NCBI GenBank assembly: GCA_045805065.1
Contig: JBJMMA010000234.1
Coordinates: 1-45,951 of the forward strand
Reading direction: 5' to 3'
Source: Bdellovibrionia bacterium
GTDB lineage: Bacteria > Bdellovibrionota > UBA1018
Length of the DNA stretch: 45,951 bases
In this document: one piece after another, positions 29,710 to 38,564 of the stretch
Position numbering within the stretch: position 1 is the stretch's first letter
How the letters are laid out: every line of letters starts with the position of its first letter
The notes under the pieces: generated by a model
The model's database searches: none
Told to the model about the DNA's origin: nothing
What the model saw: only the letters and a program-made list of their open reading frames with translations
Made by a program: the position numbers and the translations under genes

Positions 29710-30621
29710 ATGAAAGAAGCTCCAAATATGTCCCTAAATCGAGCCGTCGTTATAACCGTCGCCAACCAAAAAGGCGGAGTCGGAAAGACCACCACGACCA
29801 TGAACCTGGGCGTTGCGCTGGCCCGAGCCGGCAAACGCGTCCTTCTGATCGACAGCGATCCCCAGGCCAATTTGACAAGCTATCTCGGGGTCACTCCTGG
29901 CGAAGACGCCTTCACCGACCTTCTGACCCTGGACCAAGTTTACCTTTCAAAGCGGCCAGTTGATGCGGAGGCCCGAAAGCTTTACATCACCTCCACCGGT
30001 AGCGGTGTTGATCTGATTGCCTCGGACAAAGCGCTCTCGGGCGTTGAGTATTATCTCTTCTCCCGCGCTGATCGGGAGCTGGTGCTCTCTCACTTTTTGA
30101 ACGGCGTCAGCCCTCACTACGACTTTATCCTGATCGACACGCCGCCAAGTCTCAACCTGCTGACATTGAACGCGCTCTGTACCAGCGATCACGTCCTGAT
30201 TCCTGTCCAGCCGGAGTTTTTCAGCCTCGAAGGAATTGTTAAAATCCGCGAGTCGATTGAGAACATCCGCGATCGCTGGAACGAGAAACTCACCATCCTG
30301 GGAGTCCTGTTTACTCAAGTCTCACAGCGTCGCAAGCTGACCCAAGAAGTGATTGATATGTTGCGCACAGAAATGGGCGAACTGGTGCTTGAGACGATGA
30401 TCCATGAAAATGCCGCCGTCACCGAAAGCTCAGGCCATGCCCGGTCTGTCATCGAGTATGATCGCGCGTCCCGCGGAGCAAAAGACTACTTGGCAGCCGC
30501 GAAGGAAGTTTTGGCTCGCCTGAGCGAACGTTTAAGTGCCACAAAAACAGACTCCCAAAAGGACGCAATCGCCGCTTCTCAGGCAAGCTCAAAAGTGAGC
30601 TCCTCGGAGGCTAACGTATGA
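29710..30621 (+). CDS. Orphan ParA/Soj-family ATPase
   Basis: ANQKGGVGKTTT deviant Walker A, DSDPQANLT, IDTPPSL, IPVQPEFF; no parB adjacent. Confidence 0.93.
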   Translation: MKEAPNMSLNRAVVITVANQKGGVGKTTTTMNLGVALARAGKRVLLIDSDPQANLTSYLGVTPGEDAFTDLLTLDQVYLSKRPVDAEARKLYITSTGSGVDLIASDKALSGVEYYLFSRADRELVLSHFLNGVSPHYDFILIDTPPSLNLLTLNALCTSDHVLIPVQPEFFSLEGIVKIRESIENIRDRWNEKLTILGVLFTQVSQRRKLTQEVIDMLRTEMGELVLETMIHENAAVTESSGHARSVIEYDRASRGAKDYLAAAKEVLARLSERLSATKTDSQKDAIAASQASSKVSSSEANV

Positions 30622-30998
30622 GCACGAATAACCGGATTGGCCGCAATCCGTTTGATAAGAAGCCGAAGGCATCTATTCCGGCTGCCCAAAGCCCTGCATC
30701 CACTCAGACCGTAAAAACCGGCCAGCCCCAGAAAACTGCCAAGAGTAAAAAGTCGGTCAAGACCTCCGAGACAGTTCAGCCCGAATTCGTCTTGAAAGTT
30801 TCAGACAAAAAAACTGAAACAGCCAAAAAGATTGAGTCGTTTCAAAACCTAGAAACCTCCGATCAACTTTCTGCTAAAACCGCAGAGTCTGAAGCTCAAA
30901 TCATTGGCGAGTTGATCGATCTCCCGGAAGAGAGCTGGCAGCCTCTGACAGCAGTGCCATCTCAATTCATCAAGCAGCTCCTCTCACGCTGGATCTAA
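30618..30998 (+). CDS. Small hypothetical protein coupled to ParA
   Basis: ATGA overlap, GGAGG RBS; basic N-terminus RIGRNPFDKK, low-complexity middle. Confidence 0.7.
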   Translation: MSTNNRIGRNPFDKKPKASIPAAQSPASTQTVKTGQPQKTAKSKKSVKTSETVQPEFVLKVSDKKTETAKKIESFQNLETSDQLSAKTAESEAQIIGELIDLPEESWQPLTAVPSQFIKQLLSRWI

Positions 30999-32007
30999 CT
31001 TTCATTGGAGCTTTGGACCCGGACCCTGACGATCTAGCTCTCCACCTCGCGCGACTTGCTAGTAGCTGCGGCCGAAAAAGTCCCATTTGCTCGGCAACGT
31101 ATCTATTATGAGCGCCACACCTGAGCGTCAGGTTTTGGGCCGAGTTTTGTCCACCTAAGCTAAACGGTACGATATGGTCAAACTGCAGGCCATGGTGGCT
31201 ACCGCAGACCCGTCCAGTCTTTGGATCTTTGTAAGTACAGCCATCTTTGTCTCTAAAGGCGACCTTCCGTCTCTGTGCAACCGAGATATAGCGCGAGCGC
31301 TTAATCATCCCCGGCGCCGGGGATTTCAGCTTTTGCTGAGGCAGGTCTTGAGACTCTTCTCCTCGCTTTGGCTCCTTTGGACGCAACTTAGCCAAAGCCA
31401 TATCAGCCATCTGCTCGACTAAAACATCCATGCGACCTTCAAAGTTTTTGTGAGCCAATAAATGCTTAAGCTCTTCCAACTTTTCCATAAGCTCAGCCGA
31501 GGCAACAAACTGCACTAGTGTCTTTTGCTCTGGAAGCGCTCGAGTCTTTTCCGTAGGCATCACGACATCCGGTGACCGTTCCATCAGAACACGCTGACCT
31601 GCACGAGTTGATTTGCCCAAAAGACTACCCACAACTTCACGCTTCTCATCCAAAGATAGCTTTTGCTCTCCCTGCTCTTTACGGCGCAAGTCTTCCTTCC
31701 TGAAAAAGCTTTGGGCCTGACTTGCGTTCTCAAGTGCAAGCTCACCACTCTCCAGTCGAGGAGCGACTTCTGGCACAGACTGAAGAAGTCTCATGGCACT
31801 GATGCGACGATAAGCCGCACCGGAACTGTAACCCAGCTCCTTCATGGCAAAGGTATAGAGATCTGGATAACCCATTTCCAGATGAAGCTTTCTCACTTCG
31901 ACTTCTTGCAAGGCGTACAAGATCTCCATGAGAAGCTTGCGTTCATTTTCTACTTTTACTTTGAGCTCGAGAACCAATTGAGAATTGGAAAGAGACTTTA
32001 AACTCAT
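30970..32007 (-). CDS. HNH endonuclease with long helical N-terminal domain (DUF222-like architecture)
   Basis: GYPDLYTF...LGYS..AAYRRI in the N-domain; C-terminal RSRYI...D..C...C....LQFDHIVP..LGG....NL...C.AHN. Start at ATG 32007 with GAGGT RBS (ORF track 32052). Confidence 0.9.
   Translation of the reverse strand: MSLKSLSNSQLVLELKVKVENERKLLMEILYALQEVEVRKLHLEMGYPDLYTFAMKELGYSSGAAYRRISAMRLLQSVPEVAPRLESGELALENASQAQSFFRKEDLRRKEQGEQKLSLDEKREVVGSLLGKSTRAGQRVLMERSPDVVMPTEKTRALPEQKTLVQFVASAELMEKLEELKHLLAHKNFEGRMDVLVEQMADMALAKLRPKEPKRGEESQDLPQQKLKSPAPGMIKRSRYISVAQRRKVAFRDKDGCTYKDPKTGRVCGSHHGLQFDHIVPFSLGGQNSAQNLTLRCGAHNRYVAEQMGLFRPQLLASRARWRARSSGSGSKAPMKVRSSVRGAA
31307..31324. repeat. 18-bp perfect GC-rich palindrome inside HNH gene (copy 1)
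   Basis: ATCCCCGGCGCCGGGGAT; lies in the KSPAPGM segment of the interdomain linker. Confidence 0.9.
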
Positions 32008-32270
32008 ACAACACCTCATCTTTTCGAGAGGCACTCTAACATGAGTTTTCAAAATGAATTTTAGGCCATTAGCTGGCCTGCCATCACACGCAGTAGGCGC
32101 AACTCAAGAAGCTCCGAACTTATCTATAGAAAATTCAACAGAGAGCAAACTAAGGCTTATTACGAGTGCTTTAAAATCGGCTTATAAATTTCATCACCAT
32201 ATCCATTTTTGCTTTTCAATTAGGTCAAGATAAAAAACAAAACTTTCAAATCCCGCTCTCGCTACACTTC

Positions 32271-32289
32271 TCCCCGGCGCCGGGGATGA
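32271..32289. repeat. Second copy of the palindrome, upstream of the HNH gene
   Basis: TCCCCGGCGCCGGGGATGA is the exact reverse complement of 31305-31323. Confidence 0.9.
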
Positions 32290-32335
32290 CCGCACATAGC
32301 TCCGCCGTCTCTCCTACTTATGATGACCAACCTTT

Positions 32336-32377
32336 AAAAACAAAAACGCCCAAGATGAAAACTCACCTCGGGCGTTT
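32336..32377 (-). terminator. Intrinsic terminator of glnA
   Basis: Minus strand CGCCCGAGGTGA-GTTT-TCATCTTGGGCG then TTTTTGTTTTT; two G-U pairs work only on this strand. Confidence 0.85.
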
Positions 32378-32433
32378 CGTTTTTTAGCAAAGACTGCTTG
32401 TACTAAGCCAGGCGCCTTACGGCGCCTACTTAC

Positions 32434-34662
32434 TTAAGACAAGAAAAGCATCTCGCGGTACTTAGGCAATGGCCAGTAGTCGTCAGCGACCACGGACTCC
32501 ATCTCATCGCAGTCTGTACGAATATCAAACATCAGCGTTGAAACCTCTGTGGCAAGAAGCTGTGCCTTCTCTTCTTCGCTGCCGAGCGTTTCGACTTTGT
32601 GGAATGCTCTTTCGAGCTTTTCACGTTTGGACTGTAGTGCTGCAACCAGTTTGGCCAAGCGCTCCGCCACGGTAGCTTGAGGCGCGCTGATCCCCGCAGC
32701 CTTGGCGCTTGCTACTCCCGCGGTCAAAACCGAGTGATAAGCAAAAGCCGCTGGAAGGATCTGCGTATCGACCATGGAGCGAAGCGTGTCGATCTCGATC
32801 AGAAGATTCTTCACGTAGCGCTCAACGCGGACATGGAAGCGAGAAACAAGCTCTGCTTCGCTGAAGATGCCCATCGAAGACATGAGCTTCTTGGATTGCT
32901 CGGTCACGAGCTGTGCCAAAGCTTCTGGCGTCTTGCGAAGATTTGGAAGTCCGCGCTTTTCAGCTTCCGTCACCCATTCTTCGGAGTAGCCGTTGCCTTC
33001 AAAGCGAATCGATTTCGTTTCCTTGATCGTTTCGCGGATCACTTCGATCACGGTTGCTTCGTTGACTTTGCCCTTACCGCCCTTGGCCTTAAGAGCCTTC
33101 ACAAGATCGGCAAATCCGTCAGCAACAGCTGCGTTCAACAAAGTGACCGGGAACGCGGTCGATGCGCTCGAGCCCACTGCACGGAACTCAAACTTATTAC
33201 CTGTGAAAGCAAATGGCGAAGTACGATTACGGTCAGTATTATCGCGCATGACTTCTGGAAGCTGGCTCACGCCGAGCTGGATGACCGCAGCTTCTGCGCC
33301 CTGGCCTGAGGCTGCGCCTTCTTCGATCTGATTCAAGATGCGAGTGAGAAGATCGCCCATGAAAATCGAGATGATCGCAGGAGGGGCTTCGTTTGCGCCT
33401 AAGCGATGATCGTTTCCAGCCGATGCAATCCCTGCACGCAGAAGACCTGCATGCTTGTAAACACCCTTCATCACGCCAGCGAGCATCAGCAAGAAGCGAA
33501 TGTTTTCGTGCGGAGTCTTGCCTGGATCAAGAAGGTTCTCGCCGTTCAGATCTGGACCGCTTGCAGCGATGCTCATGGACCAGTTGTTGTGCTTACCGCT
33601 TCCGTTGATTCCGGCAAACGGCTTCTCGTGCATGAGCACGGAGAAATTGTGGCGAAGCGCCACTTTACGAAGCACTTCCATCGTCACTTGATTGTGATCG
33701 GCAGCAAGATTTGCTTCTTCAAAGATGGGAGCCGTCTCAAACTGAGATGGAGCCACTTCGTTGTGGCGAGTTTTCACGGGAACGCCAAGCTTATAGAGAT
33801 CATGCTCGACTTCGCTCATAAAAGCGAGAACGCGGGCTGGGATGCTCCCAAAGTAATGGTCTTCAAGCTGCTGACCCTTAGGAGGCTGGCCACCCAGGAG
33901 CGTGCGTCCAGTCATGACGAGATCCGGACGAAGATTAAAGAAGCTGCGATCAATCAGGAAGTATTCCTGTTCAACGCCCAAGCTTGGGACCACGCGCTTC
34001 ACATCGGTGTAGCCAATGAGGCTCAAAAGCTCGCAAGCATTTTTGGACAGAGCTTCGTTGCTTCTGAGGAGCGCCGTTTTTTCATCGAGCGCATCGCCGT
34101 GATAGCTGATGAAAACAGAAGGAATGCAAAGAGTCTTTCCGTTCGTGTGCTCAACGATGAACACAGGGCTGGATGGATCCCAAGCCGTGTAACCGCGGGC
34201 CTCGAACGTCGTACGCATACCGCCCGATGGAAAGCTTGATGCATCTGGCTCAGATTGAATGAGCTGAGAGCCCGAGAATTTTTCGATCGTCTTGCCGTTG
34301 TCATCAAAGGTCAAAAAGGCGTCATGCTTCTCGGCCGTCGTTCCAGTCTGTGGCTGGAACCAGTGGCAGAAATGAGTCACGCCACGGGCCTGCGCCCATT
34401 CCTTGATCGCATGCGCGACGGTGTTGGCGATTTCCGTATCGAGTTTCTTGCCAGTTTCGATGGTCGAGAGAAGTTTGGTGAATACGTCTTTAGGAAGCTT
34501 TTCCTTCATCTTCTGGATGTCAAAAACGTTGACTCCATAATACTCGGAAACGCGCATTCTCTTGCCTGAATCATCCCGCGGGGGATCGAACTTTCTAGGC
34601 GTGCGAGTGTTAACATCACGAACGGCTTCAAACCGAGCCTTAGCTCCAGTTCCCATGCTCAT
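32434..34662 (-). CDS. glnA: Glutamine synthetase type III
   Basis: HWFQP, TAEKHD, EPDASSFPSGG.R.TFEARGYTAWD, LEDHYFG, HNEVAPSQFE, GSGKHNNWS, DRNRTSPFAFTGNKFEFRA, WPLPKY. Start at ATG 34662 with AGGAG RBS. Confidence 0.97.
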   Translation of the reverse strand: MSMGTGAKARFEAVRDVNTRTPRKFDPPRDDSGKRMRVSEYYGVNVFDIQKMKEKLPKDVFTKLLSTIETGKKLDTEIANTVAHAIKEWAQARGVTHFCHWFQPQTGTTAEKHDAFLTFDDNGKTIEKFSGSQLIQSEPDASSFPSGGMRTTFEARGYTAWDPSSPVFIVEHTNGKTLCIPSVFISYHGDALDEKTALLRSNEALSKNACELLSLIGYTDVKRVVPSLGVEQEYFLIDRSFFNLRPDLVMTGRTLLGGQPPKGQQLEDHYFGSIPARVLAFMSEVEHDLYKLGVPVKTRHNEVAPSQFETAPIFEEANLAADHNQVTMEVLRKVALRHNFSVLMHEKPFAGINGSGKHNNWSMSIAASGPDLNGENLLDPGKTPHENIRFLLMLAGVMKGVYKHAGLLRAGIASAGNDHRLGANEAPPAIISIFMGDLLTRILNQIEEGAASGQGAEAAVIQLGVSQLPEVMRDNTDRNRTSPFAFTGNKFEFRAVGSSASTAFPVTLLNAAVADGFADLVKALKAKGGKGKVNEATVIEVIRETIKETKSIRFEGNGYSEEWVTEAEKRGLPNLRKTPEALAQLVTEQSKKLMSSMGIFSEAELVSRFHVRVERYVKNLLIEIDTLRSMVDTQILPAAFAYHSVLTAGVASAKAAGISAPQATVAERLAKLVAALQSKREKLERAFHKVETLGSEEEKAQLLATEVSTLMFDIRTDCDEMESVVADDYWPLPKYREMLFLS

Positions 34663-36717: not shown

Positions 36718-38564
<1,847 letters not shown>

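Follow-up and report, generated by a model that had tools for sequence, protein, structure and literature searches.

A multicopy HNH nuclease gene of Bdellovibrionota, probably akin to DUF222-HNH genes, with a candidate binding site spelled in its own linker

Known nuclease-palindrome systems and the present locus

The DUF222-HNH genes of actinobacteria (REP13E12, the 13E12 repeat) are stand-alone multicopy genes coding for a helical domain followed by a C-terminal HNH domain; PMC3592412, in its available portion, mentions DUF222 merely as an accessory domain, and the accessible parts of the literature yielded neither a mechanism nor a palindromic site for it. ParB and Noc bind palindromes through a recognition helix, and four residues switch their specificity (available text of PMC7383237), while RAYT pairs a nuclease gene with a specific type of palindrome that also occurs in extragenic copies (available text of PMC3337134). 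In phage T4, an operator copy upstream of the I-TevI gene is bound but poorly cut, an arrangement of autorepression (available text of PMC2988022). Searches of the open-access full-text literature gave no description of a nuclease gene with a linker-encoded site of its own.

The window analyzed here is the whole 45,951-nucleotide stretch of a Bdellovibrionia contig (JBJMMA010000234.1, assembly GCA_045805065.1). It contains an HNH gene between host genes, with the following features (position 1 is the first nucleotide of the window):

29710..30998, plus strand: ParA-family ATPase and short partner ORF, flanking host genes
30970..32007, minus strand: DUF222-like/HNH gene, 345 aa from the ATG at 32007, Pfam HNH above cut-off
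31078..31296, minus strand: HNH nuclease domain with zinc-ribbon cysteines; D277, H278, N292, H300 and N301 intact
31297..31374, minus strand: length-variable, low-confidence linker carrying the site (pLDDT 53-65)
31307..31324: internal 18-bp perfect palindrome ATCCCCGGCGCCGGGGAT (16-bp core, CG centre), by sequence a candidate cognate binding site
31375..31530, minus strand: predicted ribbon-helix-helix dimerisation module, about aa 160-211
31564..31950, minus strand: predicted ParB/KorB/Spo0J-like helix-turn-helix DNA-binding domain, about aa 20-148
32033..32041, minus strand: extended -10-like box (TG-N-TAGAGT), probable promoter, 26-34 bp before the ATG, recurring in subfamily alignments
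32223..32228, minus strand: conserved A/T-tract and TTGAC(C) box, 184 bp upstream of the -10 hexamer, at the left edge of paralogue-shared DNA
32271..32289: upstream palindrome copy, 16-bp perfect core at 32271-32286, 264 bp before the ATG
32335..32386, minus strand: glnA intrinsic terminator, a host feature and left bound of the element
32434..34662, minus strand: type III glutamine synthetase (glnA), flanking host gene

The C-terminal tail of the HNH ORF and the 3' end of the parA-partner ORF overlap, as the earlier note on this DNA had described, over 29 bp; the note's description of the gene as solitary was wrong, since tblastn finds 11 family loci in the source genome (G000; G001, G097, G164 and G180 below are genomes of relatives, and C labels denote G000 contigs). 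The ParA partner is short, poorly conserved and Lys/Pro-rich with a GRNPF motif at its start, and the ParA pair adjoins glnA in many genomes of the family; in several relatives the interval between ParA/partner and glnA has taken up unrelated genes as well. Elsewhere in the window (about 36990-37055), some 30 Gln codons follow in a row in a VWA/TPR gene, which we take to be BatB-like.

The element is probably kin to the DUF222-HNH genes, with which it shares the stand-alone multicopy layout. Of 74 aligned homologues, 15 hit PF02720 at E<=0.05, DUF222 clusters are found among the Atlas neighbours and one Atlas structure row reaches the bar for DUF222, although this protein and its genome stay below the PF02720 cut-off. 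With ParB-parS, Noc-NBS, KorB, VirB and SopB it would share the helix-turn-helix domain, the dimer and the palindromic site (predicted here), whereas no N-terminal CTPase domain was detected, ribbon-helix-helix and HNH parts are added, and the site lies within the coding region of the protein itself. With RAYT/REP/REPIN systems it shares the pairing of nuclease type with palindrome type and, in one related clade, dispersed extragenic copies; there, however, the chemistry is of the HUH/tyrosine kind instead of HNH, and here the gene is multicopy and the site sits inside the ORF. Membership of the RAYT/REPIN group was rejected, as Pfam and NCBIfam give HNH only and the model matches HNH, ParB and ribbon-helix-helix folds, with no HUH/Tyr. 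IscB/HEARO was likewise set aside (IscB model at 23.8 bits against a cut-off of 175, over the HNH part only; no conserved leader RNA).

Palindromes in the window and across the family

The linker palindrome encodes K-S-P-A-P-G-M in the minus-strand HNH ORF, and its upstream copy borders a stretch of 40% GC. The two share an inverted identity of 19 bp (31305-31323 vs. 32271-32289) and a direct identity of 17 bp (31308-31324 vs. 32271-32287). With up to three mismatches allowed, the window contains no further match, and none of 100 shuffles gave any. The 18-bp palindrome, its 19-bp inverted copy and the lack of a third copy in the window all stand as first noticed. Genome-wide, the 16-mer is found three times against 0.0002 copies expected under an order-5 Markov model of the genome.

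In eight of the 11 paralogues, a perfect palindrome in the linker is matched by an identical one about 280-800 bp upstream; three different sequences are involved: TCCCCGGCGCCGGGGA in C234 (the gene of this window) and C47; ACTCCGCCGGCGGAGT in C99, C115, C244 and C6; and CCTGTCCCGGGACAGG in C122 and C235. The three 16-mers occur 3, 11 and 7 times in the genome (<0.001 expected). Among the remaining paralogues, C165 combines an imperfect site with an inverted match of 28 nt upstream, C171 has no linker palindrome and C88 is cut by the contig end. The closest pair of paralogues shows approximately 87% DNA identity, and no near-identical pair was seen. Of 41 relatives, 30 gave matches to the family, with as many as 68 in a single genome, and the family comprises 6,376 clusters at 50% identity (E<=1e-30). 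By their names, the homologues, like the Atlas clusters, indicate Bdellovibrionota; a single-protein query found no relative in plasmid, phage and viral collections. Another repeated palindrome, with core TCTTCGCGCGAAGA, has five copies in G000 (C31:15295-15326, C52, C171:12222, C226), one of them 169 bp upstream of the C171 paralogue.

For the family-wide comparison, 222 loci were reduced to 175 distinct genes, of which 148 (full length, with 800 bp on each side) were kept; related genes in the counts that follow are kin and not independent. Perfect linker palindromes with arms of at least 6 were present in 48 of the 148 genes, as compared with 7 of 148 control coding segments, and absent in the other 100; 45 of the 48 are CG-centred and 47 lie in one codon phase. 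Linker-to-upstream matches scoring at least 14 numbered 32 in inverted and 30 in direct orientation, vs. 4 and 3 downstream and 1 and 0 for a control segment. Of the 49 genes whose motif is strong, 25 carry it again upstream and 3 downstream, while 24 have no upstream copy within 800 bp; in a held-out set (51 genes from 80 further loci), the corresponding counts were 14 upstream, 2 downstream and 2 in the control. Thus, the check suggested in the earlier note, namely whether homologues possess a linker palindrome of their own with a matching flanking copy, came out in its favour.

The pairing of nuclease type with palindrome type is specific, and the site type tracks the gene subfamily. In a cross-matching of gene pairs, a motif of a different type was found upstream in 23 of 2000 comparisons and a motif of the same type in 230 of 352. 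This refutes a chance origin, in which a proline-rich linker would merely happen to spell a GC palindrome: Pro, Ala and Gly codons do favour CCG, GCG and GGG, but a non-coding upstream copy matches the linker, the expected number of genomic copies is minute (see above), and the pairing recurs with different sequences, so that we find such an origin hardly credible.

Within the sites, the half-sites are conserved while the central 4 or 5 bases vary, some clades having a 5-bp instead of a 4-bp spacer, and the orientation of the copies is variable (19 inverted, 10 tied, 18 direct). Variable spacer bases and length, together with free orientation, fit a duplex site read by a dimer. Some sister clades have no detectable site. 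An alternative would have the copies act by base pairing (as an RNA guide, a long-range mRNA stem or a DNA hairpin) or through recombination by which the promoter and N-terminal half would be inverted or deleted. Perfect palindromes could indeed form hairpins, and the inverted match is the longer one here and at some other loci (up to 28 nt, C165); however, the orientation is not fixed, and flank pairing specific to the element was not found between linker and upstream sites (2.74 vs. 2.61 of 6 bases; 10 wins, 8 losses), the linker flank of a gene resembling its upstream flank no more than the linker flanks of its peers do.

Neither does the leader point to RNA. In two subfamilies, with both strands considered, no conserved structure was found (consensus energy 0 to -1.6 kcal/mol, conservation index <=0.04), and Rfam returned no leader family, its one match being a chance hit (E 0.83). 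A structured RNA at 32010-32330, where the earlier note had advised looking for a small RNA, thus finds no support in conservation or in Rfam. A single-sequence leader fold with z -4.4 was discarded, as it spans the glnA terminator and the palindrome and the structure is not conserved across homologues. Of recombination between the copies, earlier thought capable of uncoupling the nuclease domain, no inverted or cleanly deleted product was seen in the loci examined. From four DNA runs, short contigs without joints were obtained (2-4x depth), uninformative as to inversion or circles. Action by base pairing or recombination is thus very unlikely, and the copies behave, as judged from these sequence comparisons, as protein sites and not as pairing partners.

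Further features of the sites were observed in individual lineages. The linkers of P0082 and P0109 contain short units duplicated in tandem, up to four or five copies. Two G001 loci (L047 and L148) have a third site 83-88 bp after the HNH domain, which forms a 33-42-nt inverted repeat with the upstream site, the latter being in turn a direct match to the linker site. In two distant clades (the L352-L380 solo sites; C165, L040, L041 and L043), the dyad is accompanied at a distance of 7-8 bp by a further short motif, which ends in GCGT(C/T)A and could be read by the ribbon-helix-helix module or mark a nick site.

Predicted protein architecture and gene leader

The predicted structure of the HNH protein (pLDDT 88) splits into four parts. 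For the first of these (aa 20-148), VIA-align gave Z 6.6 with ParB-parS 6s6h (rmsd 8.8, 119 aligned), Z 6.3 with KorB 8qa8 (rmsd 3.4, 99 aligned) and Z 5.8, 5.3, 4.9 and 4.6 with other ParB-family chains, the matches including Spo0J, VirB and SopB; as is true of all fold scores in this analysis, these lie below Z 8, where the tool warns of a possibly common arrangement, and each is modest alone. We propose a ParB-like domain because six ParB-family rows fall on one segment. In an hhalign comparison with 29 ParB proteins, residues 54-145 fall on the ParB DNA-binding domain (E 9e-4, score 29.5, probability 23%), whereas the maximum score among 20 shuffles was 20.1. Pfam HTH_ParB gave no hit for the HNH protein, no N-terminal ParB/Srx CTPase domain was detected (no ParBc hit; aa 8-39 form one long helix), and Foldseek against the PDB returned no match at E<=0.001. 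An alignment-free fold of the N-terminal domain, at pLDDT 48, was excluded.

The second part (aa 160-211) resembles NikR (Z 5.2, rmsd 1.7, 46 aligned) and several ribbon-helix-helix antitoxins. A homodimer is predicted for the N-terminal half, with contacts through strands 163-169 and helix 15-36 and a score of 0.75 vs. 0.00 for the best control. This mark, which likeness to solved ribbon-helix-helix dimers may help to reach, is attained by 20 of 30 true pairs but also by 1 of 23 single chains; the runs agree in at least 97% of contacts, at pLDDT 87. A linker that spans 19-173 aa among homologues (anchors included) leads to the HNH part, in which residues 233-310 match HNH nucleases with Z up to 7.5 (phage GVE2 HNH) and the catalytic residues are conserved (H278 in 162 of 164 genes, N292 in 162 of 164). 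A binding domain tethered to the nuclease by a flexible linker is likewise found in I-TevI and free-standing HNH homing endonucleases, according to the available portions of the sources. Taken together, the models predict a dimer built on a ribbon-helix-helix core, with heads of the ParB-like helix-turn-helix type and two flexibly tethered HNH domains.

The site type follows the sequence of helix 61-70 together with residue 93, the counterpart in the alignment of the glycine in the ParB SAGHA motif, presumably G201 of the work on ParB/Noc specificity. Recognition-helix columns covary with site type (mean 0.18 vs. 0.05 overall), a signal confounded by ancestry, from which a recognition code at residue level could not be disentangled either. 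A predicted ParB-like fold, a predicted dimer and site types that track subfamilies support the earlier proposal that the protein recognises its own palindrome, which it very probably does.

Paralogue homology begins near -230, at the A/T-tract and TTGAC box, and stops at the stop codon. The TTGAC box is present at -300..-180 in 58 of 156 genes, compared with about 10% of control windows; the upstream palindrome lies mostly outside it, at a variable distance. A consensus scan of the HNH gene leader found no classical promoter. Measured in 79 pairs, the distance from the TTGAC box to the extended -10 hexamer is concentrated at 164-167 (21), 172-176 (12) and 182-186 bp (31), with 184 bp here, although each peak may represent a single subfamily. 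At 17 bp plus approximately 14, 15 or 16 helical turns, these distances would suit a split promoter that stays in phase. The A-tract periodicity of the leader is weak (peak 0.04 at lag 12 vs. 0.02 in controls), and we make no claim from it.

Insertion, dispersal and proposed mechanism

The gene, which is multicopy, occupies orthologous sites in some genomes and is missing from them in others; its linker bears a 16-17-bp dyad specific to the subfamily and often repeated upstream. G001 has the gene at the same glnA-parA site, while in nine other genomes glnA and parA are adjacent with neither HNH gene nor site; at the L252 locus, 20 fetched intervals, chosen partly for short gaps, comprised 15 empty, 4 filled and 1 unclear. 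The empty sites that the earlier note had advised looking for in relatives therefore exist. No cognate dyad was found in the 9 empty glnA-parA or the 15 empty L252 intervals, all from distant relatives. Homing endonucleases target the allele that lacks them, whereas here an intact site persists in the gene, empty alleles are siteless and many unrelated loci are occupied; a homing endonuclease gene was rejected on the grounds that the filled allele keeps intact sites and these empty intervals lack the dyad.

As to insertion-sequence traits, Pfam and NCBIfam gave no transposase hit, no shared right end was seen among paralogues, and two G001 copies have the 33-42-nt inverted repeat noted above. 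No target-site duplication was seen, the empty alleles being too diverged to reveal one. In two remnants (G000:C259:35933 and L138), the palindrome is fused to the last 15-23 HNH codons and the catalytic His is lost, the site being joined to the HNH tail across a short microhomology.

Some of these observations might suit a domesticated regulator or defence nuclease serving the host, with the dyads as plain operators of a small regulon and the copies as old duplications. The shared insertion site in G000 and G001 implies that the insertion is old, the catalytic residues are conserved, and some solo sites lie at similar coordinates in G097 and G164. On the other side are up to 68 matches per genome with patchy presence, empty orthologous sites, broken copies and remnants, and site sequences that vary between subfamilies inside one genome; we regard host service as quite improbable.

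Dispersal of sites away from the gene differs between lineages. In the subfamily of the present locus it is slight: of four exact 14-mers in G000, three are at family genes and one is away, and in G001 6 of 21 12-mers are away from family genes, most of the six inside long ORFs. In genus g92, by comparison, a 17-bp dyad has 20 copies in G097 and 21 in G164, with only 2 and 1, respectively, at the cognate gene (reversed control, 0). Of 41 solo contexts, 36 are non-coding by an ORF test, and 22 include the linker flank of the resident gene (background 1.3%; the pattern was written after viewing some of them). Of 20 genomes that possess a close gene (E<=1e-69), 15 contain the dyad, vs. 2 of 24 without one, a cut-off that was set post hoc and a count in which the copies of many positives may be those at the gene itself.

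These data bear on an HNH-driven REP-like system, whose main activity would be to copy the site with approximately 15 bp of flank genome-wide, the upstream copy being one such deposit. The abundance of the dyad in G097 and G164, its mostly non-coding contexts with the resident flank and its association with the gene speak for this, as does one orthologous locus at which the upstream site is shifted or missing. Against it, the present subfamily is barely dispersed, G180 has 13 dyad copies with no gene hit, solo sites could be scars of lost elements, and upstream flanks are no closer to a gene's own linker flank than to those of its peers. Moreover, clusters with at least two oriented copies are direct repeats in 8 of 8 cases (10 loci examined, some orthologous), with no inverted doublets like those of REPINs, and copies number tens and not hundreds as in RAYT/REPIN systems. 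A REP-like system of this kind is thus unlikely, and the earlier analogy to RAYT/REP is supported in part only; the genome-wide motif count recommended along with it was likewise borne out in part: G097 and G164 hold about 20 mostly non-coding copies each, but the subfamily of the present locus is sparse.

Long microsatellites with varied units of 2-8 bp were seen bordering family genes, in some cases on both flanks (L252, L253, L255, L261, L048, L148 and others). Simple repeats of at least 24 bp flank 17 of 198 family genes, compared with 0 of 133 far-upstream segments, 0 of 143 far-downstream segments and 0 of 30 ParB loci, controls that are mostly coding and hence unmatched. In five complete genomes, all 11 (AGAT)6+ arrays lie within 1 kb of a family gene, in a set that includes two discovery cases and genomes picked for having such arrays. 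The present locus has no microsatellite, and none of the five simple repeats of G000 is near a family gene. Microsatellites and remnants fit, rather than prove, local nicking and repair.

Overall, the locus is in our view probably a single copy of a selfish one-gene element that occurs in Bdellovibrionota and is related to DUF222-HNH genes, and whose dimer would bind its own parS-like site. The dimer would bind the double-stranded dyad in the way ParB binds parS, and binding of the cognate site is, in our judgement from the models, highly likely. The linker, predicted to be disordered, would be the one coding stretch free enough to spell a site, so that every gene copy would carry its own operator. 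With the internal and upstream sites occupied, perhaps in a loop, the nuclease gene would be held down, and we incline slightly towards such autorepression by site binding, which would resemble the action of I-TevI on its own operator; as the upstream site is 230 bp from the likely promoter, simple occlusion would fail. Tethered nicking near bound sites might then let repair copy the gene or the site elsewhere, leaving microsatellites and deletion scars; this nick-driven copying is more weakly inferred, and we propose it tentatively.

A wider reading, which we hold to be doubtful, is that of a new class of mobile DNA: a one-gene element dispensing with transposase, reverse transcriptase and guide RNA, in which a ParB-derived dimer would nick beside the site written in its linker and host repair would duplicate either the gene or just the site elsewhere, giving rise to REP-like repeats and microsatellites, while promoter boxes 14-16 helical turns too far apart may work only when looped. 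If this were true, thousands of members that spell their own target in coding sequence would constitute a ready-made protein-DNA recognition code. If each protein binds its own linker dyad, the target of every member would be readable from its gene, which would make the role of DUF222-HNH-type repeats directly testable, with many natural nuclease-site pairs of 16-17-bp specificity; it would also provide (i) an origin for dispersed palindromes that is independent of HUH transposases and (ii) a cause for the rare bacterial microsatellites. The family is large and uncharacterised, and named cultured Bdellovibrio strains carry it, so that testing in vivo is possible.
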